Origin: a virus
IMG/VR virus record: IMGVR_UViG_3300005436_000012
Length of the DNA: 64,000 nucleotides
Direction: 5' to 3' (one strand)
The notes under the pieces were generated by a model. That model was given only the letters and a program-made list of their open reading frames with translations. It searched no databases and was not told the DNA's origin. Made by a program: the position numbers and the translations under genes. Positions 7,143-63,659 of this stretch are shown piece by piece (positions within the stretch are counted from its first letter, which is position 1; every line of letters starts with the position of its first letter).

Positions 7143-7772
7143 ATGGCGCGGCGAAATAAAACGGAAACCGCCGTGGCGCCGGCGACATCGGATCCCCGGC
7201 CTGGCGGAGTACTCGCGCAGGACTACGAGCTGGTCGACGTCTCCCAGTTGCAGGTGCACCCCGACAATCCCCGGCAGGGCGATATCGGCGCGATCGCCAA
7301 ATCGATCGCCATCAATGGATTCTTCGGCGCCGTCGTGGTGCAGAAATCCACCAGCCGGATATTGGCCGGCAACCATCGCTTCGAAGCCGCCAAGGGCGAG
7401 GGATTGAAGCAGATCCCGGTGATCTGGATCGATTGCGACGATGCCGCGGCCCTCAAGATCCTGCTGGCCGACAACAAATTATCCGACGATGCCGTGTACG
7501 ATGAAACGGCCCTCGCCACGCTGCTGATGGACGCCCGCAACCAGGGGAATCTGGAGGGAACGGGCTACACGGAAGTCGACCTGGGCGAATTGTTCAAACG
7601 CATGGGCGACGAGATCCTGAAGGCGGCCGAGCCGGAGGAAAAGAAATCAGGCGAAGGCCGGACGGAGCTCGAGTACCGGGTGATCGTCGAATGCGAATCG
7701 GAAGAACAACAGACGGAACTGCTCGAACGCTTCGAGGCCGAGGGTCTCGAATGCAAGCCACTCATTTCCTAG
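7143..7772 (+). CDS. ParB-like nuclease (ParB N-terminal domain) protein
   Basis: VDVSQLQVHPDNPRQ ... ILAGNHRFEAAK (ParB box-like); acidic C-terminus. Confidence 0.6.
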   Translation: MARRNKTETAVAPATSDPRPGGVLAQDYELVDVSQLQVHPDNPRQGDIGAIAKSIAINGFFGAVVVQKSTSRILAGNHRFEAAKGEGLKQIPVIWIDCDDAAALKILLADNKLSDDAVYDETALATLLMDARNQGNLEGTGYTEVDLGELFKRMGDEILKAAEPEEKKSGEGRTELEYRVIVECESEEQQTELLERFEAEGLECKPLIS

Positions 7773-7773
7773 C

Positions 7774-8937
7774 GTGAAAATCGATATAGCCGTCGAGACG
7801 GAAATCTCGCAATCCACGCGGGCGAAACAGCTGTCGGCCATGTTCGATGTGCCGGCATCCAAGAAATGCTCGCTGCGCTGGTCAGGCGATCTGCCGATCG
7901 AGGATTTCAACTGGAATGTTGGCTTGATCGTGGGGCCATCCGGATCCGGCAAATCGACCATCGCACGGAATCTGTTCGGTGAAAACTTCGATGTGCCGTT
8001 TGAATGGACGGGCAAGAGCGTCATCGATGATTTCTCGGCCCTGCATTCCATGCAGGAGATTTCAGAAGTCTGTCAGGCGGTCGGCTTCAACACCATTCCG
8101 GCGTGGCTTAGGCCCTACAAAATCCTATCGAACGGCGAGCGTTTCCGCGTCGACTTGGCGCGGCGGCTGCTGGAGCTTCCCAATCCGATCGTCGTGGATG
8201 AATTCACGAGCGTGGTCGACCGCCAGGTGGCTCAGATCGGCGCGCACGCGGTCCAGAAATTCGCGCGGCGGCTCGATCGCCAGTTCGTCGCGGTCTCCTG
8301 CCACATGGATATCCTCGATTGGCTGCAGCCAGATTGGATCTTTCAGCCGGCGACGATGCACTTTGCCCGGAGGTCGCTTCAGCGACGCCCAACGCTCGAC
8401 GTCACGATCAGCCGGGTTCCTTACGCCGCTTGGAAACTGTTCGCTCCGTTTCACTATCTGACGGGGAATTTGCATCGCGCAGCGACGTGTTTTTGCCTGT
8501 TCATGGGCAATCGCCCGGCGTCTTTCGGGGCCATGCTGCATCGGCCTCATCCCAGGGTCCGGGACATCATGGGGCTTTCGCGATTGGTCACGCTGCCCGA
8601 TTGGCAAGGGCTGGGGCTAGCCATGATCCTTGCAGACAAACTGGGCGCGGCTTATAAGGCCATCGGGAAACGCATGCACACCTACCCGGCGCATCCAGCA
8701 TTGATTCGCAGCTTCGCAAAATCTGAAAACTGGCATCTGGAAAAAGCCGCCGGCACGTTCGCGCCCTCGACCGGCAACCGTCGACGCCTCGCATTGGGGC
8801 AGAAACTAGTGTCCTCGCGTGGCACTCAAAAGGCCATCGCGGGCGCTGCCGACATGGGCGGGCGTCCTTGTGCGGTGTATGAATACTGCGGCGAGCGAAT
8901 GGAACCGAAACAGGCGGGTCTGATGTTGGGCTTATGA
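7774..8937 (+). CDS. ABC-type ATPase fused to a C-terminal GNAT-like domain
   Basis: Walker A GPSGSGKST, signature-like LSNGERFRVDLARRL, Walker B IVVDEFTSVVD; C-terminal DWQGLGLAMIL resembles a GNAT Q/RxxGxG/A motif. Confidence 0.5.
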   Translation: MKIDIAVETEISQSTRAKQLSAMFDVPASKKCSLRWSGDLPIEDFNWNVGLIVGPSGSGKSTIARNLFGENFDVPFEWTGKSVIDDFSALHSMQEISEVCQAVGFNTIPAWLRPYKILSNGERFRVDLARRLLELPNPIVVDEFTSVVDRQVAQIGAHAVQKFARRLDRQFVAVSCHMDILDWLQPDWIFQPATMHFARRSLQRRPTLDVTISRVPYAAWKLFAPFHYLTGNLHRAATCFCLFMGNRPASFGAMLHRPHPRVRDIMGLSRLVTLPDWQGLGLAMILADKLGAAYKAIGKRMHTYPAHPALIRSFAKSENWHLEKAAGTFAPSTGNRRRLALGQKLVSSRGTQKAIAGAADMGGRPCAVYEYCGERMEPKQAGLMLGL

Positions 8938-12260: not shown

Positions 12261-13898
12261 CTATGCGGCCGTCTTCGCGGCTTTGATCTCGGCGCGCTTT
12301 TCCTTGGCGAGTTTTTCCTTGGCGCGTTCCGCCGCCCGATGCTGCGCGGCCTTTTGTTTGGTCCGGAGCTGGGCTGCGACCTCGGCGCGGATGACTTCCG
12401 GTTTCACCTTCCAGCGTTTGGCCGCCTGCATCAAATCGTCCGGATGACCGCCCCCGGAATAATAGTGCAGCCCTTCGCCCAGCGCGGCTTCAAAAATGAG
12501 CCGCATCAGATCGTCAGAAGACGCGGCGCGCATCCAGTCCGAAATGGCGTTCTTGTCGCCCAGGTAGCCCTCTTCCTTGCCGGTGCGTTTCTTCGAAATC
12601 GCTTTGCGGGCGTCGCTGTTTCCCCAGCGCCCGAAAGCCAGCGCCGCGATCAATTGCAGATCGAGCGTTGAGGCTTTCTTCGGATCGAAGGCCGACGCCG
12701 TTTTATCGAGCACGATCTGCCGCGTCTCGCCGTCCACCTTGGAATCGAATTCGCGCTTCTGCTCGGCGGCCAGTTCCTTGGGCGATGAAACGCGCTGGCT
12801 GCTATAGCGGCCCGCGTGCATCGGACAACGCGGATTGGTGCACACGTCGAACTGAGCGCCCACGCGCTCGTCGCCGCGCACCACCAGGGCCGCTTTACCG
12901 AACGCGCATTTGCCTTTCTTTTTGACTTCGGTCCAGCGATTCGATCCGAGCACCGGCTTGCCGTCGAGCGTTCCGCCGGCGTTTTCGTAGGCGGTCGAAA
13001 CGAGGATCGGCTCCTCGCCGCGATTGGCCTCGGCCACCTGCCGGATCTGGATCTTGACGTAGGCCGATTTCTTGGCCTCGAAGCATTTGCGGTCCGTGCA
13101 GACGTCCTTCTTTTTGACGTCCGGAAAAAGCTCGGGCGTGAAGCCGGTCCGCTTCGGACAGACCGTGCAGGCTCCGGCGGCGGGAACCAGTTCGGCGTCA
13201 TCTTTGGCGAACGCCGCCTGCGCCAGGTCGAGCATCAATTCCTGGGTGACCCAGTCGCGCAGTTCGCGGGCGGTCTTGATTTTCTGCCAGTTTTCTTTGC
13301 TGGTGATGCGCTTGAGCGCGGTCTTCTGATCCTCGGGCGTCAGACGGGCGATGATATCCGCCATGGCGATGTTGATCACGCCCTCCCAGAAAGCCTTGCG
13401 GGATTCGGCGATCAATCGCAGCAGCGACAGGCGCTTATAGATGTAGGCCAGATCCTTGCCGGTTTTACTCGAAATGACATTGGCGTCATAGCCGGGCCGC
13501 TTCAATAATTCCTGATAGCCCGAGGCTTCATCGAGCGGATGCACATCGACGTGCTGGAGATTTTCAACCAGCAACACTTCGAGGAATGCGTCGTCCGTCA
13601 TGGGCTGGATAACGGCTGGCACGAATTCGAGCTTGGCGAGTTTGGCGGCGCGCAGACGGCGGTGGCCCGCTGCGATTTCGAAACCGTGAGCGCCCAGTAT
13701 TTCTTGTTCCGTAGGATCGAGCCAGGGCTTCGAGTCCCGGATCGGGCGGCAGAGAATCGGCGCCTTCACGCCGATGAGTTTGATATTCTCGGCCAGTTCG
13801 GCCAGTTTGACGGGGTCGAAATGCTTGCGATTGTTAAGCGGCGACTCGTGCAACTTCGCCACGGGGATCTGGGAGTAGACAACGGTGTGTGTGTTCAT
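12261..13898 (-). CDS. large ParB/Srx-domain protein (545 aa)
   Basis: N-terminal VAKLHESPLNNRKHFDP ... EIAAGHRRLRAAKLA; Cys-containing middle; Lys/Ala-rich tail. Confidence 0.65.
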   Translation of the reverse strand: MNTHTVVYSQIPVAKLHESPLNNRKHFDPVKLAELAENIKLIGVKAPILCRPIRDSKPWLDPTEQEILGAHGFEIAAGHRRLRAAKLAKLEFVPAVIQPMTDDAFLEVLLVENLQHVDVHPLDEASGYQELLKRPGYDANVISSKTGKDLAYIYKRLSLLRLIAESRKAFWEGVINIAMADIIARLTPEDQKTALKRITSKENWQKIKTARELRDWVTQELMLDLAQAAFAKDDAELVPAAGACTVCPKRTGFTPELFPDVKKKDVCTDRKCFEAKKSAYVKIQIRQVAEANRGEEPILVSTAYENAGGTLDGKPVLGSNRWTEVKKKGKCAFGKAALVVRGDERVGAQFDVCTNPRCPMHAGRYSSQRVSSPKELAAEQKREFDSKVDGETRQIVLDKTASAFDPKKASTLDLQLIAALAFGRWGNSDARKAISKKRTGKEEGYLGDKNAISDWMRAASSDDLMRLIFEAALGEGLHYYSGGGHPDDLMQAAKRWKVKPEVIRAEVAAQLRTKQKAAQHRAAERAKEKLAKEKRAEIKAAKTAA

Positions 13899-15028
13899 GA
13901 GAATAGATTTCCTTGGGCTACGCCGCCAAACAGCGGGCTATCGGTGATGGGTTGTTTGCCCGCGTCGAGTGGACGCGCGCTTTTCTGTGCGAATTCGGCG
14001 CTGACGCGCTGGGCGTCGATGCGCGATTGATACTCAGGGTCAGGGACGCCGGCATCCATGCCGTAATTCGGATCCGGGTCAATGCGAACGGCAGGTCGAT
14101 AGGCGATCACGCGGCAGGCGGGCTTCACGAGGCGAATCAGTTTTCCTGGGCAGCCGGTCTTCTCGAAAGATCCAGAAGGCAGATCCTCGACGTCGGCTCC
14201 GATGCCTTCGATCCAGGACCGGAATTCCTCGGCCTTGGCCGTTGATCGGAAGAAGCCGCTCGGCCCCATCATGGCCACCAGCAGGCCGCCCGGCTTTAGA
14301 AGTTTGTAAGCGTGGACCACGTGGTCGATGTCCTGGAAGTTTTCAAAAGGCGGATTCATCAGCACGCGATCATAGAGACCGCTCTCGGGGCTCACGTCCA
14401 GGAAATCGTGCTCGGGTAACAGCGTGTGATGTTTGAGCGTCAGGATCTCCCGCAAGGACGGATTGATTTCGACCACGTCGACCAGCGCGCCAAGATCGCG
14501 GGCCCAGTCGGCGATCGCGCCCGCGCCCGCTGAAGGCTCCAGCACTTTCATTTCGACCCCGACGTCGGCCAGCTCCAGCATTCGCCGGACCGCCGCAGGC
14601 CGCGAAGGAAAGAAGCCGGGGATGTCGCGCAGCTTCACGTCGACCTCCAGGCGATGCAGCCGTTCTTTGGCCGGATCGACCGGGGTGAGCAAGCTGCGGA
14701 TGGCCTTCTGCAATTCGCTCAGTTCGCGCTGCGGCGCGTTGGGATATTCTTCCCGTTCCCGGTCGCAGAACAAAAGGCCGCGGACCGGCACGTCGACGTC
14801 CGACACATAGCGGATCGCCTGGAAGATGTCCGGCAGCGCGCGCGAGTCATGCAGGTCCGCCACCTTGCGCAGAACCTCCTGCATCGTTTGGAGCGTGCGG
14901 CCCTCGCGACGCATATGCTGGTCCTCCTGGGCGCGTTTGCGCGTGTTGGTCAGCCGTTCGCGCAGGCAGTTGTCGATTTTGGGTTGCAGTGCGTCCGCCT
15001 TTTTGCGGAGACTGGTAGATGTGTTCAT
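13895..15028 (-). CDS. N6-adenine DNA methyltransferase (gamma-like motif order)
   Basis: Motif I VLEPSAGAGAIA followed about 40 aa later by motif IV NPPF; start placed at the internal Met (MNTSTS) with an AGGAG RBS. Confidence 0.7.
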   Translation of the reverse strand: MNTSTSLRKKADALQPKIDNCLRERLTNTRKRAQEDQHMRREGRTLQTMQEVLRKVADLHDSRALPDIFQAIRYVSDVDVPVRGLLFCDREREEYPNAPQRELSELQKAIRSLLTPVDPAKERLHRLEVDVKLRDIPGFFPSRPAAVRRMLELADVGVEMKVLEPSAGAGAIADWARDLGALVDVVEINPSLREILTLKHHTLLPEHDFLDVSPESGLYDRVLMNPPFENFQDIDHVVHAYKLLKPGGLLVAMMGPSGFFRSTAKAEEFRSWIEGIGADVEDLPSGSFEKTGCPGKLIRLVKPACRVIAYRPAVRIDPDPNYGMDAGVPDPEYQSRIDAQRVSAEFAQKSARPLDAGKQPITDSPLFGGVAQGNLFS

Positions 15029-15858: not shown

Positions 15859-16626
15859 TCACGCCGCCTTTCTGGCAGCGAGTGACGCCTTGAGCGCGGC
15901 CATGATATCGACCGCCGCGGCTTGCGGCTTCTGGGCTTCGGGTTTGGGCGGCGCTGCGCCGGATTCCTTGGATGCGATCAAGGCCAGAATCTTTTCGCGA
16001 TAGCCATCCGAGAATTTCGAGGCATCGAACGTCCCCGAATAGGCCGCAATCAGACTGGAAGCCAATTCCGATTCCGCCTCGCCGATCTGGCCCAGGTCGG
16101 TGCGGTACTCTTCCGTCGCGCGGGCTTCGTGCGCGTAGAAAAGCGTGTGCGCCACGATGCCCGATTTCCCGGCGCGGATCGCCAGGACGTGTTCGCGGCT
16201 GGACATGGTGATTTTGGCGATCGCCACCGCGCCCGAACGCTTCAGCCCGTCATAAAGCAGGGCGTAAGCCTTCGAGCCGCCCTCGTCGGGCGCGATCCAG
16301 TATGCGCTTTCATAGTTGACCGGATCGACCTGAGCGATCGGAACGAATTCCGTAATCTCGGCCACGTGCGCAGACGACGGTGCCAGGGCCTTGATTTCTT
16401 CCGGCGTCACGATCACCCAGCCTTTGCCGGTCTTGTAGCCCTTCACCACGTCGGCGGGAGCGATATCGGAGCCGTCCGATTTGACGTAGGACTTCCGTCC
16501 CACCGGTTCGAGATCCGATTTCCGGAGTTCATTGAAGCTGACCGATTCACTGCGGGCGGCACATGCTAATTTCACGGGCACGCTCACGAGTCCAAATGCG
16601 ATGTGGCCTTTCCAAACGCTTGCCAT
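15859..16626 (-). CDS. ku: Ku (non-homologous end-joining DNA-end-binding protein)
   Basis: MASVWKGHIAFGLVSVPVKL is the canonical Ku N-terminus; Ku-core-like length (256 aa). Confidence 0.8.
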   Translation of the reverse strand: MASVWKGHIAFGLVSVPVKLACAARSESVSFNELRKSDLEPVGRKSYVKSDGSDIAPADVVKGYKTGKGWVIVTPEEIKALAPSSAHVAEITEFVPIAQVDPVNYESAYWIAPDEGGSKAYALLYDGLKRSGAVAIAKITMSSREHVLAIRAGKSGIVAHTLFYAHEARATEEYRTDLGQIGEAESELASSLIAAYSGTFDASKFSDGYREKILALIASKESGAAPPKPEAQKPQAAAVDIMAALKASLAARKAA

Positions 16627-16705
16627 TTTATTTGCTCTTTTCTCCCTCTGCATTGATTCGGGCTGGGGACCGGCTGGTTTGAAAAACCCAGGCTGCATTA
16701 CGAGC

Positions 16706-16735
16706 GAGTATATCTGACTGCGCAGTCAGTGACAA
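16706..16735 (-). promoter_or_regulatory. promoter/operator copy A upstream of ku: -35 TTGTCA, 17-nt spacer, -10 TATACT
   Basis: Reverse complement TTGTCA-CTGACTGCGCAGTCAGA-TATACT; perfect 16-bp palindrome CTGACTGCGCAGTCAG at 16714-16729. Confidence 0.5.
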
Positions 16736-16897
16736 CACCGCATAGAATACGCGCTGTGCAATGATCGAAAAGCTGGTCTGTAGGTGGTCTTACACTCAAC
16801 CGCCGCGTACCAGCCTCGATTTACCGGGTCGGTTTCGAGACTGACACGCGACGTCTAGGGCAGGTCGGAGGATTGCACAGAACGCGCGGCTATGCGT

Positions 16898-17323
16898 CTA
16901 GGCGGGTGGTTTGGTGTTCGTCTCGCTGAGCACTTGCGCAATGCGCACGTAATCTTCGGTTGACACACCGAGGCGCGGCTCGGTTTTGACGGCGTTGAAA
17001 GTTCGCTCAAACGCCAGCCATCGGCAATCGGCCAGCGCCACGATGAGCGGATCTTCCAGCGCCGTCACGCGCGCGTTCCAGGCATCGATCAGACCGCTGC
17101 CGCACGCGCCCGCGATGTAGGCGGGCTCGACGACATTGTTAACGTAGTCGCGCAGGATCGCGCGTCGCGGTTTGCCGGTGATGATACGCTGCATCATTCC
17201 GGCCAGTCCTCCGAGCTGCGCAGCGAGCGCGATCGAGCGGGCTTTGTCTCGGGCGGGCAGTTGTTCCCATTCCCAATCGAGCGAAATGAGCAGACAAGCA
17301 GCCGGACGTTCTTTCAGTTTCAT
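16898..17323 (-). CDS. hypothetical protein
   Basis: Internal Met (MKLKERP) with an AGGAGA RBS; ATGA overlap with the ligase stop. Confidence 0.4.
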   Translation of the reverse strand: MKLKERPAACLLISLDWEWEQLPARDKARSIALAAQLGGLAGMMQRIITGKPRRAILRDYVNNVVEPAYIAGACGSGLIDAWNARVTALEDPLIVALADCRWLAFERTFNAVKTEPRLGVSTEDYVRIAQVLSETNTKPPA

Positions 17324-18369
17324 TTGGCTTCTCCTTTGAATTTCAGTTGATCGATGGTGCACTCTGACGGTTCGATGTCTTCCCGCACGGCGAGAAAAAC
17401 GGACTGGCTGAGCGACCCGGATCGATGCGCGTAAAGATAACGCACTTCGACCACGGCCCCCACGGGCGGCGCGGTCTTGTTGGGCGGGATCGTGCAACGT
17501 CCCAGCTCGGTGCCGTCAAAAAGCTTCATGTTGAAACTGGATTGCACGTTGTGAGCCGCCACGATGACCGAAGCCGTCGCGACGAATTTGTATTTGAGAG
17601 CCGGTCCGCCTGAATTGGGCCGTCCCGGTGTGTAGGGCGCAATGGCGTATTTCAGCACCACGCCTTCCCTGCCCTCGGATTTGCAGCGGGCGAACAGCGC
17701 GAGTTTGGAATCCGGATCGGTCGCCGTTTCCACCACGCGGATGCCGGATTGCGAGGATCCGAAAAGCGAATGCAGCAGCCCCAGGCGATCGCTGTAACGG
17801 GACGCGCGCATGTCGGCGAGTCCGGCCAGCAGATCGAACGCCCAGATGATGTCGCCGATAATTTCGCCGTCAATGATGAAGGCCTCATACGGGCATTCGA
17901 GAGCGGCTTTGACGATAGTGCCGGGCAGCGTGTTGTTTACCCTGCCCGTCCGCGAATAGCTGGTTAGTCGGCCATCGCGCTTTTCTAAGATGATCCGGTT
18001 GCCGTCGAATTTCTCCTGGAAATAAATATCGGGATCGGGCGCGAGTGAAAGCAATTCCGCGTCCGTGATTTCGTTCAACAGCATGGGCTTCGGAACCAGC
18101 CTCGGACCGCATGGCTCGGGCTTGGCATCGAAGCCGACCGTTTCGAGCGGCGTCGCGTCTTCGCCGGGCGTATAGCCCTTGGCGAGTTTCTCGTTCAGCT
18201 TCGACTGATAAAGCGCGTTCGCGGCCGTCTCCGATGCGGCAGCCACGGTTTTGGTTTGCATCGTTCCTCCGCGCGGCCCCCAGGCGAATTGCACGGTGCC
18301 GTTATCGACGGAGGCGGTATAGACTTTGTCCGACCTCGAATCTTTGTAGTACAGGGTTTGGGTTTTCAT
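17320..18369 (-). CDS. ATP-dependent DNA ligase with N-terminal WGR-like module
   Basis: Motif I KFDGNR, III FIIDGEII, IV WAFDLL, V EGVVLK; N-terminal FAWGPRGG (WGR-like). Confidence 0.8.
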   Translation of the reverse strand: MKTQTLYYKDSRSDKVYTASVDNGTVQFAWGPRGGTMQTKTVAAASETAANALYQSKLNEKLAKGYTPGEDATPLETVGFDAKPEPCGPRLVPKPMLLNEITDAELLSLAPDPDIYFQEKFDGNRIILEKRDGRLTSYSRTGRVNNTLPGTIVKAALECPYEAFIIDGEIIGDIIWAFDLLAGLADMRASRYSDRLGLLHSLFGSSQSGIRVVETATDPDSKLALFARCKSEGREGVVLKYAIAPYTPGRPNSGGPALKYKFVATASVIVAAHNVQSSFNMKLFDGTELGRCTIPPNKTAPPVGAVVEVRYLYAHRSGSLSQSVFLAVREDIEPSECTIDQLKFKGEAK

Positions 18370-19156: not shown

Positions 19157-19359
19157 ACAAAACTCCTTCGCAGCCCAAGCAGCAGGCTGCGCACTTCATC
19201 GAGCGCCGTGATCTGGCCGAGCGTCCATTGAGCCATCTCCCGCTCCTGCGGGTTGGTAATTCGCTGCAATTCGTGAGCCAGGGACCCGGCGCGGAGCGCC
19301 AGTAGCTTTCCTTCGACTAGAGCGAGCAATTCTTTTCGAGTGACCGGTTTGCTTTTCAT
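19153..19359 (-). CDS. hypothetical protein
   Basis: 68-aa ORF. Confidence 0.3.
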   Translation of the reverse strand: MKSKPVTRKELLALVEGKLLALRAGSLAHELQRITNPQEREMAQWTLGQITALDEVRSLLLGLRRSFV

Positions 19360-20090
19360 AGCGATCCTTTCATGTGGTTGTGTTCGAGAATTTCAAAGGC
19401 GGCTTGGACGCGGCGAAATGCCGCTGCGTCGCCGCCCAAATCGGGATGATGTTGACGGGCCAGAGCGCGATAGGCGCGCTTGATTTCTTCCCACGTGGCG
19501 CTGATTAGCACGCCCAGGATGTCGTGCGGGGAATCGTCTTTCAAGTGGGCGCGCGCGGCGTCGATGCCCATGCGCCAGTTGAATGCGGCCTGCCATTGCG
19601 CGGTGGATCCGCGCGGGCCGTCGTGGGTCTTGTAACCGGACATGAAATCGCGTTTCATGGTCGAGCCTTTCTGTCGGGGTGATTTGGCTGTGGGTTTGGG
19701 CGTGAAGCGCGCTAGAATCAGTCCGGTGATTTCGGAATCGAATTCGTAATCGAAAAACCCGAGCCGCCCGGTGAGTTCAATGAAATCGAGCGGCTGGGCT
19801 TCAGCCAGTACGAATCCGTACTCGCCTTTGAACCAGACGCTCGGATGAGCGCTGACGCAGTCGGTCAGGATCACGCGGCCCACGATGCCGCCGCGCGCAA
19901 AATGATTGGGCAGCAAGATGCCGCGCTGCCCGCAGAGAATCCGGATCGATTCCATTTCCGGATCGAGCCGTTTGCCGGCGTGGATCGCGACCGGTCCCCG
20001 GTGATTGGTCGACCAATCGCGATTCTCGATATCCTTGTGGCCGTTAGCAATGAGCCAGGCCCACGGTTGACGAACAGACAACACTTTCAT
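19356..20090 (-). CDS. ASCH domain + C-terminal J-domain (DnaJ-like) fusion
   Basis: MKVLSVRQPWAWLIANGHKDIENR (ASCH); DILGVLISATWEEIKRAYRALARQHHPDLGGD (J-domain with HPD); start at the internal Met. Confidence 0.55.
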   Translation of the reverse strand: MKVLSVRQPWAWLIANGHKDIENRDWSTNHRGPVAIHAGKRLDPEMESIRILCGQRGILLPNHFARGGIVGRVILTDCVSAHPSVWFKGEYGFVLAEAQPLDFIELTGRLGFFDYEFDSEITGLILARFTPKPTAKSPRQKGSTMKRDFMSGYKTHDGPRGSTAQWQAAFNWRMGIDAARAHLKDDSPHDILGVLISATWEEIKRAYRALARQHHPDLGGDAAAFRRVQAAFEILEHNHMKGSL

Positions 20091-20341
20091 TTGCGCTCCT
20101 CGATCTTGGCTTCGTGCGGACGTTCGTAGCCCGGCAGCCCGAGCGCGTCGAGATGTTTGCAATGGCGGTGAATGCGCCACGCGGGGCACGAGCATCCCCA
20201 GTGCCGTTTGTCTTTGTTCTGCGAGATGACGTAAAGCCGATCGGAAGATTCCGACGCGATATGAAATCGATTGGTCCATTGCGCGTTGTCGGCTAACTTG
20301 ACTTCGCGGCGGACGTACAATACGGGCGTGTTGTTCGGCAT
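20087..20341 (-). CDS. hypothetical Cys/His protein
   Basis: MPNNTPVLYV...HWGCSCPAWRIHRHCKH; GGAG close to the ATG; sits directly under promoter B. Confidence 0.4.
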   Translation of the reverse strand: MPNNTPVLYVRREVKLADNAQWTNRFHIASESSDRLYVISQNKDKRHWGCSCPAWRIHRHCKHLDALGLPGYERPHEAKIEERK

Positions 20342-20355
20342 GCTGATCTCCTTGA

Positions 20356-20384
20356 GAGTATATCTGACTACGTTGTGACTGCCA
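20356..20384 (-). promoter_or_regulatory. promoter/operator copy B: -35 TTGGCA, 17-nt spacer, -10 TATACT
   Basis: Reverse complement TTGGCA-GTCACAACGTAGTCAGA-TATACT; half-sites CTGAC/GTGAC; coordinates may be off by 1. Confidence 0.4.
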
Positions 20385-20439
20385 ACACGGCGCAGAAAAC
20401 GCGCTGTGCAATGATTTGAAAGGCGGGCTTTGCAGCCCG

Positions 20440-21807
20440 CTAGATTAAACGGATCACCTGTCCGAACGGCGGCATGTGATCGATCCAGGCGGGCGTGACC
20501 CATAGCACTGGGTAGTCGGGCTCGACCGGCGTATCAGACGATTCCAGATCCGTCAGATACACGGCGACGCGCGGGTGAATGTCGCGCTCCTCGACCCAAT
20601 CGAACACGGGTTGCAGGCGCGTTCCGCCGCCGCCCATGAATTCGAGCTTCACGTCATCGTCGGGCGTGAATTCGGCGGTGCCCTGGACGCGCGCGTCACA
20701 GTAGACCGCGTGCAGGCGTTCGGGCTTGGCTTCCTGGATGATCGAGGTCAGTTCAGCGGCGAATTCGTCCAGCATCTCTTGCGAGACCGATGCGGACGTG
20801 TCGATGCCGGCGACGATCTCGCCGACCGTGTCGTGGATGGTACCGGGCAGATAGATCCCGCTCGAAATGAAACGGCGGTTGGGTGCGGTCCAGGAATAAT
20901 CGCTGGGCGCCGACTGCACGATGAATTCGCGCAGCACGGATTTCCAATCGACGATCGGTTCCCGTGAGCGTTTCAGTTCGCGCTGCAGGCCTCCGGGCAG
21001 TTCGCCCGAAGCGCGCGCGACGGCCGCTGCCTGTTCGGCGGCGATCGCCCAGTCTTCTTGCGTCATGGCTTCGTCGGCCTCCGGTTCCCCGGCCTCGACC
21101 CCGTCCACGAATTCGCCGGTCGGACATCCGGGCATCGAACCACCTGGGGTTGAACCACCGGGCGTGGATCCGACTGTCTGACTCGCGCCGTCGTTGGCAT
21201 CGGGCGTCGAATCGTCAGTGGGATCATCCCCGCCGTTGCCGTCGGCTGTAGCGTCGCCGTCTTCCTCCTCTGATGTCGATCCATCATCGGAATCCTCGGA
21301 CGCGTCTGAGCCGTCCTCTTGATCGTCTTCGTCTTCGTCGCCGTCTTCGTCCTCTTCGGGCTCCGGCTCAGGTTCGGGTTGCTGCATGGGCGGCTGTTCG
21401 GCCGCTTTGCGTTTGGCATAAATCTGCTCGGCGTACATGCCCTTGAATTCGGGGTCATTCAAAACGCCCGGCGGCAGTTCGAATCCGAATTCAACCAGCA
21501 CCGGATTGATGGCGTGGTCGCAGGCGATGTTCCACTCCATCGGATCGCGCGCGCCACGGCGGTAGGGATGCAGCAGAGCGCAGTGCCAAACCTCGTGGGC
21601 GATGACGCCCAGCAATTGACGTTCGGGCAGGCTGCGGGCGAATTCGGGATTGAATTTCAAAACTGTCCCGTTGGTCTGCATGGTTTCAATCGATGGATCC
21701 GGCATCAGCTTCAGCCGCATGGCCAGCGATCCGAAGAAGGGCTGTTCGAGCAGGAGGCGCGTGCGGGCACGCGCCATCATGAGTTCGTCTTGATTCATGT
21801 TTGTCAT
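20440..21807 (-). CDS. VWA-domain protein with HExxH metallopeptidase-like N-terminal region and acidic linker
   Basis: HEVWH zinc motif; long Asp/Glu-rich low-complexity linker; the DUF2201-type VWA assignment for the C-terminal half rests on overall layout and MoxR partnership, not a spelled-out motif. Confidence 0.55.
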   Translation of the reverse strand: MTNMNQDELMMARARTRLLLEQPFFGSLAMRLKLMPDPSIETMQTNGTVLKFNPEFARSLPERQLLGVIAHEVWHCALLHPYRRGARDPMEWNIACDHAINPVLVEFGFELPPGVLNDPEFKGMYAEQIYAKRKAAEQPPMQQPEPEPEPEEDEDGDEDEDDQEDGSDASEDSDDGSTSEEEDGDATADGNGGDDPTDDSTPDANDGASQTVGSTPGGSTPGGSMPGCPTGEFVDGVEAGEPEADEAMTQEDWAIAAEQAAAVARASGELPGGLQRELKRSREPIVDWKSVLREFIVQSAPSDYSWTAPNRRFISSGIYLPGTIHDTVGEIVAGIDTSASVSQEMLDEFAAELTSIIQEAKPERLHAVYCDARVQGTAEFTPDDDVKLEFMGGGGTRLQPVFDWVEERDIHPRVAVYLTDLESSDTPVEPDYPVLWVTPAWIDHMPPFGQVIRLI

Positions 21808-22682
21808 TGCAGATACCCCGACATTTTGCTGAGGATCTCGTCGGCGCGGCGCGCGGTGTCTTCCCGCACGATGGCTGAGTCTCGGAGCTCCTCGGGTGAA
21901 TGGGCGGTCAGTTCGCGGCGGATCCGCTTACAGAACTGATCGATGGCAGGATCTTCGGTGATGTTGAGCAGTGGCACGATGTCGAGCAGGTCGATGATGT
22001 TAGACACCAGCGAATCGCGAAAGGCGCTTTGGACGGGCGTGTCTTCGGTTGCGTCGGTGTAGGCGTGCAGGCGTTCCGACATTTTGCCGACCACGGATGC
22101 AAGGCGCGTCCAGATATCTTTCACCGCGAATTCGATGGTGGACTGGACGTTCGATTCAATCTGCGATTTGATGCGCGCGGTTTCTGCGTCGCCCAGGTCG
22201 ACGCGAAAATCAACCGCGTCCGGAATCGGATCGACCGACATGCAAAAAGCGAATTTGGATTCGATCTTGGATGGGCTCGGATATTCTTCCGGCTTGAAAA
22301 GCCCGTTCAGCAGACGCCGGGCATCCTCGACGTATTGAGCATAGTTGGGTTGGAACACGTTGCGGAATTCATTCCAGAAGGCGGTCTGGTGAGCCTTCAT
22401 GGTTTGGTTATATTTGAAGTACATGGGCGACGAAAGAATCCGTTTTCCTACGTCGGACCAAGGCAGCGTTAGTGTGTAGTGATCGTCTCGGGCGGCGCCG
22501 GCAATCTTTTGCAGGGAGGCCAGCGCTTCCCGGGCGAGCAAGCTCTTTCGATATTTGCCCATGGTCGGATCGGACGAATGGGTGCGGGCCACTTCGTCTG
22601 AAATCTTCTTGTCGGACTTGTAGCCACGCCATTGGCTGATGTTGAGCGACACCAGCATGGCTGATTCATTGATTCGATGCAT
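21804..22682 (-). CDS. hypothetical protein between the MoxR and VWA genes
   Basis: 292-aa ORF, translationally coupled to both neighbours. Confidence 0.4.
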   Translation of the reverse strand: MHRINESAMLVSLNISQWRGYKSDKKISDEVARTHSSDPTMGKYRKSLLAREALASLQKIAGAARDDHYTLTLPWSDVGKRILSSPMYFKYNQTMKAHQTAFWNEFRNVFQPNYAQYVEDARRLLNGLFKPEEYPSPSKIESKFAFCMSVDPIPDAVDFRVDLGDAETARIKSQIESNVQSTIEFAVKDIWTRLASVVGKMSERLHAYTDATEDTPVQSAFRDSLVSNIIDLLDIVPLLNITEDPAIDQFCKRIRRELTAHSPEELRDSAIVREDTARRADEILSKMSGYLQ

Positions 22683-24728: not shown

Positions 24729-25322
24729 GTGTCTCCATTCCCTTTCCGTTCCGCCGCTGCCGGCGAATCCTCGCGCGCATACGCCGCCTTCACGCTGTAT
24801 CGCGACCTGGGCCCGGCGCGTTCGCAGCAATCCGCCTGGCGGGAACATCTCAAACGAGCGGGACGGGGCGAGGAAACGATTTCCTGCCCGCGCACCTGGC
24901 AGGATTGGTCCTCGAAATTCGAATGGGTAGGCCGGGCGGCCGCCTACGATCAGGAAATCGACGCGCAGAGGCTGAAAGCGCGCATCGAGAAAACCCGGGA
25001 GCTCGAGGAACGCCGCGCGCAATTTGAATTCGAAAACCAGGACAGGTTAGAGAAGCGGGTCCGCAAGGCGGAAGCGGTTCTCGACAAAGCCGATTCGGCG
25101 CCCATCACCGACGTCACCCAATCGAAGGAAGAAATAGTCAAGGGCAAAGCCACCAGCACCAAGACCAAGGTCAAGGGCATCAATTTCTCGGGCTACGCGG
25201 CGCTGATGAATAAAACCAACGAGACGGCCCGGCAGGCGATCACGGGCGTCCGCGCTGACAAAAACTCGGAATCGAAACCCGGCGCCGTCCAGGAAGTCGA
25301 CGGTCTGATCTGGACGGAATGA
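24729..25322 (+). CDS. putative terminase small subunit
   Basis: Position directly upstream of the large terminase with overlapping stop/start; coiled-coil middle region; no diagnostic motif. Confidence 0.35.
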   Translation: MSPFPFRSAAAGESSRAYAAFTLYRDLGPARSQQSAWREHLKRAGRGEETISCPRTWQDWSSKFEWVGRAAAYDQEIDAQRLKARIEKTRELEERRAQFEFENQDRLEKRVRKAEAVLDKADSAPITDVTQSKEEIVKGKATSTKTKVKGINFSGYAALMNKTNETARQAITGVRADKNSESKPGAVQEVDGLIWTE

Positions 25323-26761
25323 ATCGCCGAGAGTTTCTGGCGGCCACTGTCATGGCCGGGCAACTTCCCAAGCGTAAAATCCGGTACGCCATCGACCCTG
25401 ATACGGGCGACGAGCGCAAGCCCTTCGAATGGCAGACGGCCTTTCACCGTTCGCCGGCGCGCTTCAAGGGATTCTCCGGACCGGTCGGATCCGGCAAATC
25501 GCGCGCCTTGTGTTCGGAAGCTCTAAAACTGGCCTATTTGAATCGCGGCCGGACTGGCGTCATCGGCGCGCCGACGTATCCGATGCTGCGCGATTCGACG
25601 CGCGCGTCGTTTCTGGAAATCCTGGAAGAGAACCGGATTCCCTACCGGCTGCATAAGTCGGAAAACTCGATCTATCTGCCGGAAGCCAGATCAACGATCC
25701 TGTTCCGCGCTCTCGATTCCTTCGAACGGATCCGCGGCACGAATCTGAGTTGGTTTGGGGTAGACGAATTAACTTACTGCAAGCCCCAGTCCTGGCTCCG
25801 GCTCGAAGCCCGGCTGCGAGATCCCAAGGCCACGCATCTGTGCGGGTTCGGATCCTGGACGCCCAAAGGCTTCGATTGGGTTTATGACCGCTTCATCGGC
25901 CCCGATCGCAAGCCCGGCTATGAGGCTTTCCGCGCGCGGCAGAATCCGACGCTGGGAGATTATTACCAGCGCCTGCAGGAAAGCTACGATCCCAGGTTTT
26001 TCCAGCAGGAAGCCGAAGGCGAATATCTCAACGTCTTTTCGGGCCAGGTCTATTATCCGTTCAACCGCAAAGATCACTTGAGACAAATCGAATACTCGCC
26101 GGCGCATCCGATCTGGTGGGCGCTCGATTTCAACGTCAACCCCATGTGCTCGGTGATCGGGCAGACCTACGGCGGAATCATCCGGGTGTTGGACGAGCTG
26201 GTGCTCTCGAATTCGAATACGCTGGCCGCCTGCGAGGAATTCCTGGCGCGCACCGCACACATGCTCGCGGCCCGCAAAGTCCCGGAAGTTCCCGAAGACT
26301 GGCTCGAGCAGCAGGGTGTAGGCTATCCGCTCGATCCGCCGGCGCCCTTGAACGTGTACGTCTACGGCGATCCGGCCGGCACGCAGCGCAAAACCTCGAG
26401 TTCGAGAACCGACTGGCAGATCGTGCGCGAGTTTTTCGGCCGCTACACCGATAAGTTCAAGGTGCAACTGCGCGTTCCCGAAGCCCATCCGCTGGTCAAG
26501 GACCGCGTGAACTGCGTCAACGCCATGCTGCTGAACTATGCCGGCGAGAAGCGCATGTATCTGGATTCCAAATGCCGCGAGCTCGCCAAGGATTTCGAGC
26601 AGCTGGCATGGAAGGCGGATCCGAACGGAAACCCGCTGTCGGAACTCAATAAATCCGATCCGATGCGATCGCATCTCTCGGACGCCTTGGGTTACATGAT
26701 CGTCCGCGAATTCCCGATGAAACGCAAAGCCGGCGAGCGATCGGGCCCGCCGCTCGTCTGA
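25319..26761 (+). CDS. terminase large subunit
   Basis: Walker A GPVGSGKS, Walker B-like FGVDELTY, C-terminal nuclease motif VYGDPAGTQ; 480 aa. Confidence 0.85.
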   Translation: MNRREFLAATVMAGQLPKRKIRYAIDPDTGDERKPFEWQTAFHRSPARFKGFSGPVGSGKSRALCSEALKLAYLNRGRTGVIGAPTYPMLRDSTRASFLEILEENRIPYRLHKSENSIYLPEARSTILFRALDSFERIRGTNLSWFGVDELTYCKPQSWLRLEARLRDPKATHLCGFGSWTPKGFDWVYDRFIGPDRKPGYEAFRARQNPTLGDYYQRLQESYDPRFFQQEAEGEYLNVFSGQVYYPFNRKDHLRQIEYSPAHPIWWALDFNVNPMCSVIGQTYGGIIRVLDELVLSNSNTLAACEEFLARTAHMLAARKVPEVPEDWLEQQGVGYPLDPPAPLNVYVYGDPAGTQRKTSSSRTDWQIVREFFGRYTDKFKVQLRVPEAHPLVKDRVNCVNAMLLNYAGEKRMYLDSKCRELAKDFEQLAWKADPNGNPLSELNKSDPMRSHLSDALGYMIVREFPMKRKAGERSGPPLV

Positions 26762-38465: not shown

Positions 38466-41400
38466 ATGCTCCACTACGGAAATGATGCAGGGTTCAACGT
38501 ACCCGACGGTCCAGGAGCTAGCGTTGACCCTTTCGAACAAGAGTTTCAGCGCTACCCATCCAGCAACACCGGGCGATTTAAGCGATGGATGGGCTCGCCG
38601 GCGGGATTCCGGCCGCCGCCATTTTCGCTAGAAGGCAATGCCCTAAGTGAGCCTGATCAATGGTTGCCGAACGAGGCGCCGCAGACTAATTTTGCTTTCC
38701 CAAAACTCGCAGCCGCGGCTGTTCTGCTTGCGACGCTCACGGCCTGCGCGTTCACGGCGCCGTTACCTGGACCGGCGCCCGAATCGGAAGTCAACGCCTG
38801 GTCCCAACAACCAGCCAGTAACTTAAAAAAGTTTGTTCTCCGGACGCTTAGCAGCGGTTCGGAGATCGTCACCGTCGACAAGTGGCATCCGGAACTCGCC
38901 CGGCCACGCTATGACGTCGCGCGCGGCCAATATCTCTATCCGGCGTTTCTCTACACCCAACCGGTTCCGGCACTAGAGCGGACGACGCCCGACAAGTGGG
39001 CGCCCGAGATTCAGCGCCCGCGTTTTGACGTCTCTCGCGCGCAGTATCTCTCTCAGACCGGCGCGATCCCCGATCAGCAGCAGAAGCCGGATCTGGATTC
39101 CTGGGTTCCCGAAGTCCGCCAGCCGCAGTTCGATGTCGGGCGAAGGCAGTATCTCTATCCGGCGGGCGTCCTGCCCGACCAACAGCAGAAGCCGGATCTG
39201 GATTCCTGGGTCCCCGAAGTACGGCAGCCGCAGTTCGATACCGCTCGGCGTCAGTACGTTTATCCGCCCGCTCCCATCGGTCCGGTTGTGGCCGTTTTCC
39301 TAGAGCGGACGACGGTCGATAAGTACGATCCCGGCACGGAACGGCCACGCTTTGATCTGGCGCGGCTCCAGTATCTCGCTCCGAACTTCTTCCCGGATCC
39401 GTTCCCGAGAACCCCATCGATCGAAACGATCACGATCGATAAATGGCATCTGGAAATTCAGAGGCCGCGCTTTGATCTGGGGCGGAGCCAGTATCTTTAC
39501 CCGGCCGCTGTCCTACCCGATCAGCAGCAGAAGCCGGATCTCGATTCCTGGGTCCCCGAACTCCGGCAGCCGCAGTTCGATACCGCGCGCAAACAGTATC
39601 TTTATCCATCGCACGCGGCACCGGTTTCGAGCGTATTCAGCGAGCGGACGACGCCCGACAAGTGGGCGCCCGAGATTCAGCGCCCGCAGTTCGACGTCGG
39701 GCGAAGGCAGTATCTCTATCCCGCCGGGATAGTTCCCGATCAGCAGCAGAAGCCGGATCTCGATTCCTGGGTCCCCGAAGTTCGCCAGCCGCAGTTCGAT
39801 GTCGGGCGAAGGCAGTATCTCTATCCGGCGCACATCGGGCCGATCTCGCCAGTCGTAAAAGAACGATCGACCCCGGATAAATACGACCCGGGAATCGCTC
39901 AACCGCGCTTCGACCTGGCTCGCCGGCAGGATCTGTATCCGCCACACACCGGGCCAGTTGCCCCGCCGTTAGCGGTAGTAGTCATCCCGGTCGAGCCGGA
40001 AATAAACCGCTGGTCGCAGCTGCCCTATCGCAGCCTCAAACAATGGGTTATCCGGACCTTCCAGAATCCAGCGATCTATTCACGCTGGCAGCCGGAGGGA
40101 AATCAGCCGCGCTTCGATGTCTCCCGGCGGCAGTATCTCTATCCGGTACAGGCTGGCCCGATCGCGACCGTCTTCGTAGAAACGAACAAGGTCGATAAGT
40201 GGCATCCGGAGATTCAAAGGCCGCGCTTCGATCTGGTGCGCCGGCAGGATCTCTATCAGGTTCATGGCGCGCCGATTGCGACGCGTTTCACCGAGCGTAG
40301 CGAGCAGTCCGATAAATGGGCGAGCGCGATCGAGCAGCCGCAATTTGATCTTTCCCGGCGCCAGTTCATCGTTCCGGCAGTTTCCTTCGCTTGGCCGGTT
40401 CCGACCGTCATTGAAATCAGTACGGTCGACAAATGGGTCCCGGCCGTTGAACAGCCGCAATTCGATCAAAAGCGCCAGCAAGTTCTTTCCGAGCCGCTTA
40501 CTTTATCCAGCTATCCGACGCTGGCATCGCTGCCGCTCCAGACCCCGGATAAATGGTGGCAGCCAACTCCGGATCCCGTCCGGCCAATCGATTCGCGCGC
40601 CCATCTGGACGCTGCGTCGCTGTTCATCTTCCCGCAGCCTGCCATGCAGGCCGCCGGCGGCGCGAACGCCATCACGCTGGCCTGGAAATTCGTCCACGTC
40701 GGCACGAAATCGTTTGAGCCGGTTTTAGTTCCCAATAACTGGCGCGAACGCAGCACTCCGGATAAATGGCATCCGGAAATTCAGCGGCCCAGATTCGACC
40801 AGGTCCGCCGGCAGGATCTCTATCCGGCGCTCACGAATCCCGTGGCGCCGTTGTTCGTGTCGGTTCCCTACGCCGACAAGTTCCATCCGGAAATTCAGCG
40901 GCCGCGCTTCGAGCCCAAGCGCCATCAGTATCTTTATCCGGGTTATAGCGGTCCGGTCTCAAAGGTTTTTCCAGAGACTGCGAGTGCCGACCGCTGGCAT
41001 CCGGGGATCGAGCGTCCGCGGTTTGATTTAGGACGCAGGCAGCAGCTTTACCCCGCGCATGCCGGGCCAGCAACAATACTGTTCCAAGAGACAGTATCGG
41101 CCGACCGTTGGTATCTGGAAATCCAGCGCCCGCGCTTCGACGTCAGCCGGGTACAATATCTCGGCGAGGCCTCGCCGTTCCTGTTCCAGCCGTTCCCTTC
41201 GTCGGCCAAAGGGCCCTCCGGCAAAGCGGGCGTCCAGGTCCTGGTCTGGAAACGCGGCAGCGCGGGCTCGAAATCGTTTGAGCCGGTTTTAGTCCCGAAC
41301 AATTGGATCGAGCGCAGTAGCGCTGACAAATGGCACCCGGCCATCGAGCAGCCACAGTTCGATGCCAAGCGCCTGCAGGCCCTGTATGAACCGGCTTCGT

Positions 41401-63338: not shown

Positions 63339-63659
63339 GTGACGCGCCGCGAATTGTTCGCCACCCTGGGCTTAGGCATTGCTCAATCACGGCCGCCTCA
63401 GGCCGGAGCCAGGGTCCCCGAAATCAGCGCAATCACGAAGCGCCAAATCACGGCCGGCACAATCACCGTCGAGAGACTCGCGCCGATACCGCACTTCTCG
63501 ATGACCGATTGTTTAACGGCGGCCAGATTGAACGAGTTGGTCGATGGAATCAACACACTGCACCGAGCTATGAGGCGTACGGCGGCCAGATTGAACGAGT
63601 TGGTCGATGGAATCAACACACTGCACCGAGCTATGAGGCGTCACGGAATAATCGAATGA
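63339..63659 (+). CDS. small protein with TAT-leader-like N-terminus and internal 21-aa tandem duplication
   Basis: MTRRELFATLGLGIAQS; TAARLNELVDGINTLHRAMRR appears twice. Confidence 0.35.
   Translation: MTRRELFATLGLGIAQSRPPQAGARVPEISAITKRQITAGTITVERLAPIPHFSMTDCLTAARLNELVDGINTLHRAMRRTAARLNELVDGINTLHRAMRRHGIIE
63516..63641 (+). repeat. perfect 63-bp tandem direct duplication (2 copies)
   Basis: acggcggccagattgaacgagttggtcgatggaatcaacacactgcaccgagctatgaggcgt occurs twice consecutively. Confidence 0.8.

Follow-up and report, generated by a model that had tools for sequence, protein, structure and literature searches.

The Ku and LigD proteins together define bacterial NHEJ (non-homologous end joining). 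In the window analysed here, that is, the whole 64,000-nucleotide stretch of the IMG/VR virus record IMGVR_UViG_3300005436_000012, a gene for a Ku-like protein was found close to a gene for an ATP-dependent DNA ligase with an N-terminal WGR domain (positions 15,859 to 18,369). The question raised by this locus is whether the two proteins work together, as proposed in a preliminary description that called them a self-contained end-joining kit. With moderate confidence, we infer that Ku and the WGR-ligase are a phage-borne minimal end-joining pair, serving genome circularisation or break repair, and that the phage could probably rejoin its broken or linear DNA without the LigD of its host.

Ku and a WGR-fused ligase on a phage genome

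The window comes from soil metagenomes and is part of the genome, longer than 72 kb, of an uncultivated tailed phage. Its sequence recurs on a 72-kb contig, recorded as ENA ERZ27264997 and in a JGI entry, and other samples yielded it on shorter contigs. The element had been described simply as mobile; the large terminase, a capsid protein gene (PF25209) and a cell-wall hydrolase identify it as a phage, and the contig also encodes a sigma factor.

The protein encoded at the Ku open reading frame (ORF; Table 1) starts with MASVWKGHIAFGLVSVPVKL and proved to be a bacterial Ku, as first described. It matched Pfam PF02735 (E 2.6e-36) and phrog_4873, 'Ku-like DNA end binding' (E 1.3e-42), and it scored 237.4 bits against the NCBIfam equivalog TIGR02772 (Ku_bact; cutoff 150), with residues 3-249 covering positions 2-259 of the 259 in the profile. 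The gene callers used on two assemblies placed the start at upstream ATGs, giving 264 aa. Since the homologues all open with M-A-S/T-x-V-W-K-G, the start at 16626 was taken as the homologous one. The protein has the core β-barrel/ring domain and a conserved minimal C-terminal arm, DIMAALKASL (alignment A3, 20 homologues), of the bacterial pattern D-I/L-M-x-A-L-x-x-S-L. McGovern in 2016 and Sowa in 2022 are said to have identified this minimal arm as the ligase-recruiting element of Ku. As a discriminator between ligase-linked and ligase-free phage Ku proteins the arm failed, nearly all of them retaining it. The preliminary description had also considered that the ORF might encode a protein like Mu Gam. 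This identity was rejected: the Pfam scan (E≤0.01) gave PF02735 alone, with no Gam family, and PHROGs gave phrog_4873 alone. Judged by its sequence, the protein is a true NHEJ-type Ku and not Mu Gam.

The ligase contains all of the motifs reported for it, namely EKFDGNR, FIIDGEII, WAFDLL, EGVVLK and FAWGPRGG, and matched PF01068 with an E value of 4.9e-15 and 56.2 bits (cutoff 26.2). The residues of the active site were assigned to motifs I (K120-F-D-G), III (D167-G-E), IIIa (F178-D179), IV (E235-G-V-V-L-K240), V (K259-Y-K261) and VI (R329-E-D331). In an alignment of the window protein and 28 homologues, K120, D122, G123, D167, G168, E169, D179, E235, G236, K240, K261 and R329 are invariant in the 29 sequences, and at F178, K259 and D331 conservation is 90% or higher. 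The nucleotidyltransferase (NT) domain is followed by an OB domain, whose fold is visible in the structural model alone; PF14743 (OB_2) gave no match at E≤0.01. The WGR-like module proposed for the N-terminus was borne out by PF05406 (25.9 bits, gathering cutoff 22), by a match of the family profile to the WGR protein 2ra8 (E 1.9e-4) and by the PADLOC model WGR_XIII (E 4.9e-8). The predicted structure of the ligase was confident and contained the WGR fold, an antiparallel sheet with a helix, which superposed on the WGR domains of PARP1 and PARP3 at 1.4-1.5 Å. As judged from motifs and model, the ligase has an intact predicted active site and a real WGR fold. Residues 225-344, which belong to the OB part, weakly matched PADLOC HEAT-ARM_XIII (E 1e-4); the PADLOC matches hint at a candidate defence system that likewise includes WGR proteins and possibly domains resembling a ligase.

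The nearest solved relative found by Foldseek was the LigD ligase domain. No NCBIfam ligase model reached its cutoff, the best being that of the LigD ligase domain, and therefore the enzyme is not LigD, LigC or LigB. LigD identity was rejected on the low score of TIGR02779 (given below), on the length of 349 aa and on the absence of primase-polymerase (POL) and phosphoesterase (PE) domains; TIGR02776 gave 46 bits (cutoff 373). The preliminary description had asked whether a LigD-like polymerase lies elsewhere in the element. No called gene of the incomplete 72-kb contig was recorded under a Prim-Pol, LigD_N or AEP family, or as a LigD primase-polymerase or phosphoesterase.

As originally reported, the ligase gene lies two genes upstream of Ku on the same strand; all genes of the pair region are on the minus strand. 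Between them is an orphan ORF (o141), whose start overlaps the ligase stop by 4 nt (ATGA), suggesting translational coupling of ligase and o141; a spacer of 271 bp separates o141 from Ku. The orphan had no match in Pfam, PHROG, NCBIfam or PADLOC, only 8 weak matches among 1.84 billion representative proteins, and was absent from all related loci. A role as adaptor or processing factor was rejected on the lack of a family match in the four libraries, and o141 was treated as an orphan.

A 91-nt repeat (family D11) occurs in exactly two copies with 74% identity, and an exact 17-mer and an exact 13-mer are shared by these two copies alone. Each copy provides the best sigma-70-like site of the 5.3-kb region. 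The predicted promoter of copy A, TTGTCA-17-TATACT (16735-16707), had a scan score of 10 of 12, and its spacer is filled by a perfect 16-bp palindrome, CTGACTGCGCAGTCAG (16729-16714), a candidate operator. The claim that Ku stands behind an operator-bearing promoter copy is upheld to the extent of this predicted promoter and palindrome. Copy B heads a tightly packed or overlapping unit of o84, ASCH-DnaJ, o68, o200, o63, ligase and o141, and copy A heads the next unit, consisting of Ku, o164, o113, methyltransferase and ParB. Both genes had been assigned to one early operon. The units are indeed adjacent and have the same type of promoter, but Ku and ligase are predicted to form part of two consecutive transcription units and not of one operon. 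Since both genes are behind copies of one promoter, joint expression is predicted.

Table 1. Positions of the Ku and ligase genes, their domains, promoter repeats and neighbouring genes in the window.
Feature	Position	Strand	Evidence or detail
Bacterial-type Ku, 255 aa	15859-16626	-	PF02735, TIGR02772, phrog_4873
WGR-fused ATP-dependent DNA ligase, 349 aa	17320-18369	-	PF01068, PF05406, motifs, model
WGR domain, residues 9-70	18160-18345	-	
Flexible linker, ~ residues 78-94		-	
Nucleotidyltransferase domain, ~ residues 95-262	17584-18087	-	
Catalytic Lys120	18010-18012	-	
OB domain, ~ residues 263-349	17323-17583	-	
Orphan ORF o141, 141 aa, between ligase and Ku	16898-17323	-	
Promoter repeat copy A, directly upstream of Ku	16689-16779	-	-35 TTGTCA 16735-16730, -10 TATACT 16712-16707
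Promoter repeat copy B	20339-20429	-	TTGGCA-17-TATACT, 20385-20357
o84, SWIM-like CxC...CxH motif	20087-20341	-	
ASCH-DnaJ protein	19356-20090	-	DnaJ PF00226, E 4.3e-12
o68, 68 aa	19153-19359	-	
o200, 200 aa	18554-19156	-	
o63, 63 aa	18366-18557	-	
o164, 164 aa	15363-15857	-	
o113, 113 aa	15025-15366	-	
Methyltransferase	13895-15028	-	
ParB_N/HTH_ParB protein	12261-13898	-	
Large terminase	25319-26761		phrog_2, E 8e-45

Co-occurrence of Ku and ligase in phages

Two of the three nearest ligase relatives keep Ku just downstream. In the first (locus L167, ligase 60% identity), ligase and Ku are 80 bp apart with an integrase nearby; in the second (L168, 58% identity), the ligase is followed by five small ORFs, Ku is 1.5 kb away and ParB lies further downstream. 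A single-ligase query of the IMG/VR viral contigs found nothing, and an alignment-based search gave 78 loci, 5 of which have Ku within 10 kb. When the IMG/VR scan was instead seeded on Ku, 22 loci were obtained, and a ligase of the superfamily was found within 10 kb in 6 of them. Both genes are rare in the 50,697 deposited phage genomes, where Ku was found in 87 (86 of them mycobacteriophages) and a ligase match in two, with no overlap between the two sets of records. One of these two matches is a full-length homologue with 28% identity from the acidobacterial jumbo phage Tunturi_5, in which tblastn found no Ku. Compared with base rates, the observed overlaps of Ku and ligase gave binomial p values of 3e-7 and ~1e-18, where the base rates come from deposited phages, and the make-up of cultured collections is not that of metagenomic ones.

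The Ku-linked ligases belong to at least five lineages. Their architectures are three: WGR-NT-OB, NT-OB lacking WGR (L046 and L185), and, in L188, NT with a BRCT-like domain and an OB domain of PF04679. Linked loci are the window, L167, L168, L037, L039, L046, L068, L072, L183, L185, L188 and L189. The pairwise identities of Ku and of ligase were correlated (Spearman 0.56), and the same three clades were found for both genes, comprising the window with L167 and L168, L037 with L039, and L068 with L072, L183 and L189. Within the clades the spacing of the two genes ranges from adjacent to 8 kb. Ku and ligase in phages therefore appear to be co-inherited. With several lineages, three architectures and co-inheritance, accidental pairing is unlikely, and the pattern is the signature of a functionally retained pair and not of a frozen accident. 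Comparative support for the proposal of a self-contained kit comes from the repeated occurrence of Ku with a phage ligase, and from their co-inheritance, in several phage lineages.

One linked locus was inspected on its own account. At 9767-12498 of L188, Ku is followed at once by a 468-aa stop-to-stop ORF with a borderline BRCT match, PF01068 and a LigD/LigC-type OB domain (PF04679), and this locus is an independent phage Ku-ligase pairing.

A further gene was seen beside the WGR-ligases. The 84-aa protein o84, encoded by the first gene of the unit with the ligase, carries the SWIM-like motif CSCPAWRIHRHCKH and has no Pfam match. Its homologues, often with a DnaJ-domain gene, are found beside WGR-ligases in six other phage contigs (L065 6348-6614, L076 9721-9987, L003 8249-8833, L037 17791-18168, L068 13978-14430 and L072 14703-15071), and in L065 and L076 the genes for o84, ligase and DnaJ are directly adjacent in that order. 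It is possible that o84 is a third partner conserved alongside the ligase.

A search of 5.8 billion proteins gave more than 1,768 WGR-ligase homologues. Nearly all are 345-385 aa long, mostly about 350-365, and most have both WGR and PF01068; they come from Planctomycetota, Verrucomicrobiota and deltaproteobacteria. A scan of GTDB genomes with the narrower alignment A2 gave 325 matches, of which the best 80 were mostly from Verrucomicrobiota and Planctomycetota metagenome-assembled genomes (MAGs), the retained loci being biased towards Verrucomicrobiota. Williamson & Leiros, in a review of 2020, listed WGR-NT-OB_2 as the largest bacterial NT-OB_2 cluster, from delta-proteobacteria and Planctomycetia and functionally uncharacterised (PMC7470946). 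The same review remarks on an absence of Ku for Prochlorococcus.

The bacterial WGR-ligases seem to lie within mobile islands that have integrated into the genome and carry DUF3150, ThiF, a PDDEXK nuclease and HTH regulators. A strongly syntenic WGR-ligase island was observed in Verrucomicrobiota and Planctomycetota MAGs (L081-L163, e.g. L161 10001-16912 and L162 7879-14332), with a protein of 500-540 aa and of no assigned kind directly downstream of the WGR-ligase. Several MAGs hold two to four copies on different contigs, which suggests a mobile element that uses the WGR-ligase without Ku. The window itself has a 292-aa ORF (21804-22682) with homologues in 19 of the loci L081-L163.

Proposed mechanism and alternatives

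In bacteria, the Ku homodimer is threaded onto double-strand ends, and its conserved C-terminal arm serves to recruit or stimulate an ATP-dependent ligase. For the phage Ku and ligase, we infer a physical and functional partnership, a role for the WGR domain and a biological substrate as follows. The Ku homodimer would thread onto the double-strand ends of the injected or cleaved phage genome, protect them and hold them together. The ligase would be a bare NT-OB catalytic core, with a PARP-type WGR domain on a flexible linker in the place that a DNA-binding domain usually has in larger ligases. PARP WGR domains read 5'-phosphorylated breaks, and PARP2 bridges 5'-phosphorylated double-strand breaks via its WGR domain (PMC10235982). 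By analogy with PARP1-3, the WGR domain of the ligase would recognise the 5'-phosphorylated break and position the NT-OB core there, and the ligase would then seal the ends held by Ku. Since there is no POL or PE module, joining would be limited to ligatable ends (cohesive, blunt or cleanly cut). One job of the pair may be the circularisation of the injected linear genome, and a second the resealing of DNA that restriction enzymes or CRISPR have cut; in both jobs the phage would be independent of the LigD status of its host. A precedent for the first job is provided by Corndog and Omega, which circularise genomes with 4-nt cos ends by means of their own Ku and the LigD of the host, according to PMC12848934, citing Pitcher 2006.

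A more far-reaching proposal is that phages repeatedly built host-independent end-joining modules from Ku and a minimal ligase, and that the WGR domain takes over from the LigD polymerase domain, docking the ligase on Ku-bound, 5'-phosphorylated ends and bridging those ends. This proposal is tentative, and we hold it to be rather doubtful. If it were true, it would be the first function assigned to the large WGR-ligase family and a prokaryotic or viral precedent for a WGR break sensor coupled directly to ligation, and phages would have a built-in means of circularising, and of withstanding cuts by restriction or CRISPR, in hosts without LigD.

Several observations weigh against an end-joining pair. 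Mycobacterial Ku contacts LigD partly via the polymerase domain, which is absent from the window ligase, and the score against the equivalog of the LigD ligase domain (TIGR02779) was 65 bits, with a cutoff of 227.75. In a comparison of C-terminal tails across 30 phage Ku proteins, the window Ku has no basic extended tail, and AARKAA alone follows the arm; the extended tail of most homologues has 10-35 residues, including 5-10 Lys/Arg, and a tail of this kind is present in the cellular homologues. The WGR motif of the ligase reads WGPRGG where the family has (W/Y)GRRG, with Pro in place of the nearly invariant first Arg, while the Arg after the Pro is retained. Since the identical protein was found in independent assemblies, this is not a sequencing error. 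Neither circularity nor the type of terminus was readable from the assembly: the contig breaks off within a gene at its right end, and its termini do not overlap. We found no biochemical or genetic test of any WGR-ligase in the literature.

The distribution of the genes weighs in the same direction. The third of the nearest ligase relatives, which is also the closest large one (L003/L169, ligase 67% identity), has no Ku at the syntenic position. Ku was absent within 10 kb of the ligase from all of the best 80 of 325 bacterial loci and from 73 of the 78 IMG/VR ligase loci. In 16 of the 22 Ku-bearing viral loci there was no ligase within 10 kb, and a regex search, ~75% sensitive on known ligases, found no other ATP-ligase near the viral loci with Ku alone. 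The ligase family being mostly without a nearby Ku, the ligase therefore has a Ku-independent default job.

These counts favour an alternative in which the two genes are independent neighbours, the ligase being a general nick sealer (for Okazaki fragments, for nicks remaining from recombination or from base-modification repair, or for cos nicks) and Ku a Gam-like protector against exonucleases of the RecBCD/AddAB type. The separate predicted transcription units, with the orphan gene and the spacer between them, would fit as well, and replication ligases are common in phages (T4, T7 and the Rhizobium phage ligase 9fzx). However, independent roles do not explain co-occurrence far above the base rate, its recurrence with three unrelated ligase architectures or the co-inheritance of the two genes. 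The window protein also belongs to the Ku-family equivalog and has the ligase-recruiting arm, and is not of the Gam type. Moreover, no other DNA polymerase or replisome family that would need a replicative ligase was recorded among the called genes of the 72-kb contig. We consider independent roles unlikely, and an end-joining pair the better account of this evidence.

It is considerably less probable that Ku works with the LigD of the host, as in Corndog and Omega, and that the phage ligase is irrelevant to end joining. The presence of both Ku and LigD is common in lineages of Acidobacteriota, Bryobacteraceae and Terriglobales among them, which counts in favour of this alternative, and the nearest cellular Ku proteins are those of Acidobacteriota (e.g. 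Bryobacteraceae and Terriglobales; 47-49% identity). This is a weak hint of the host, which is probably not an actinobacterium. Use of the host LigD is also the sole experimentally established mode of a phage Ku, according to PMC12848934 (citing Pitcher 2006). Nevertheless, this alternative leaves the repeated co-inheritance of Ku and ligase in phages unexplained.

Least probable of all, we would give very little credence to lysogenic-conversion cargo, in which the pair expressed from a prophage gives the host end joining (in stationary phase or desiccation) and does not serve phage DNA: the promoter and candidate operator of Ku, the integrases of L167 and L168, the moron-like presence or absence of Ku among close relatives and the bacterial WGR-ligases on integrated mobile islands are in keeping with it, but the same promoter heads the upstream early-type phage block, which argues for regulation in the phage cycle and not for expression from a prophage, no integrase was found among the called genes of the 72-kb contig, and the genes lie within the early block, in its orientation, and not at a genome end.

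Genome context and comparison with known systems

The pair lies in a minus-strand block, between about 9 and 24 kb in the window, that is divergent from the terminase and encodes a MoxR-like ATPase, DUF2201, ASCH-DnaJ, ligase, Ku, methyltransferase and ParB, together with a clamp-loader-like AAA protein. We read it as the early or replication-side gene block of the phage. Megablast of 12 kb of the region against deposited phages gave no match, and therefore the phage has no cultured relative. The nearest cultured large terminases, from cyanosiphoviruses and Klebsiella phage-plasmids, are ~30% identical, which is too distant for inference of the packaging mode.

Two ParB_N-domain proteins of 209 aa and 545 aa are encoded at 7143-8937 (+) and 12261-15028 (-), together with neighbours that weakly resemble the MADS methylation-associated defence in PADLOC: a 387-aa ABC-like ATPase resembles mad3 and a 377-aa methyltransferase resembles mad2. 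These pairs of ParB_N protein and neighbour may have anti-restriction or epigenetic functions for the phage. As signs of a defence system, the matches to WGR_XIII, HEAT-ARM_XIII, mad2 and mad3 were set aside, as they have the appearance of generic domain similarity. In the structural module, a 1,456-aa ORF at 38466-42836 (+) consists mostly of at least 17 diverged copies of a ~105-114-nt (35-38 aa) repeat; it matches no Pfam family, and a possible identity is a tail-fibre or tape-measure-like repeat protein. At 63516-63641 (+), towards the window's right end, lies a perfect 63-nt tandem duplication with two identical copies. The window begins at position 3 of the ENA contig (72,172 nt). Between 18,371 and 57,921 the ENA copy is ~105 nt shorter than the window; a ClpB-like AAA gene located there is broken up in one assembly but whole in another.

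The pairing suggests that viruses can carry end joining as a fully portable function, which bears on circularisation, host range and escape from nucleolytic defence, and it suggests a candidate function and a partner for the WGR-ligases. A two-protein kit of ~600 aa without mutagenic end-processing domains could also become a tool for genome engineering in NHEJ-deficient bacteria.

Compared with the Ku and LigD systems of Mycobacterium, Bacillus and Pseudomonas, the window has a bacterial Ku with a TIGR02772 match and the minimal arm, a ligase core that is structurally nearest to the LigD ligase domain, and two genes that are close together on the same strand. It differs in that the pair is encoded by a phage and not by a chromosome, in that its Ku has no basic extended tail, and in that its ligase is not LigD and has an N-terminal WGR domain instead of the primase-polymerase and phosphoesterase. 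Bartlett et al. in 2013 reportedly described a modular archaeal NHEJ system in Methanocella paludicola with separate Ku, Lig, Pol and PE. That system likewise combines Ku with a stand-alone ligase polypeptide and not with a fused LigD; it has separate polymerase and phosphoesterase genes, however, whereas none were found on the window contig. Mu Gam is also a phage-encoded DNA-end binder with the Ku fold, but the window protein matches cellular Ku models and retains the C-terminal arm that Mu Gam does not have. In PARP1/2/3 the WGR domain is attached to an ADP-ribosyltransferase, and in the window protein to a ligase.

The WGR-NT-OB_2 cluster has the same architecture and size as the window ligase, with an N-terminal WGR domain on a minimal NT-OB core and no DNA-binding domain of the Lig B/C/D type; its members are treated as uncharacterised cellular enzymes in the review (PMC7470946), whereas the window ligase is on a phage and near Ku. 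We found no functional clue for WGR-ligases in the searchable literature. The Ku proteins of Corndog and Omega (clusters O and J), ~30% identical to the window Ku over residues 1-220, are likewise phage-encoded and of the bacterial type, with genome circularisation as their proposed purpose. The difference is that those phages borrow the host LigD, according to PMC12848934, whereas the window phage brings its own ligase. A phage with Ku plus its own ligase was found neither in the searchable literature nor among the deposited phage genomes. The WGR-ligase fusion, the phage Ku and the combination of Ku with a stand-alone ligase are each already known. Since the WGR-ligase architecture has been catalogued and is mostly free of Ku, the novelty of this locus is the phage-borne pairing and not the fusion.

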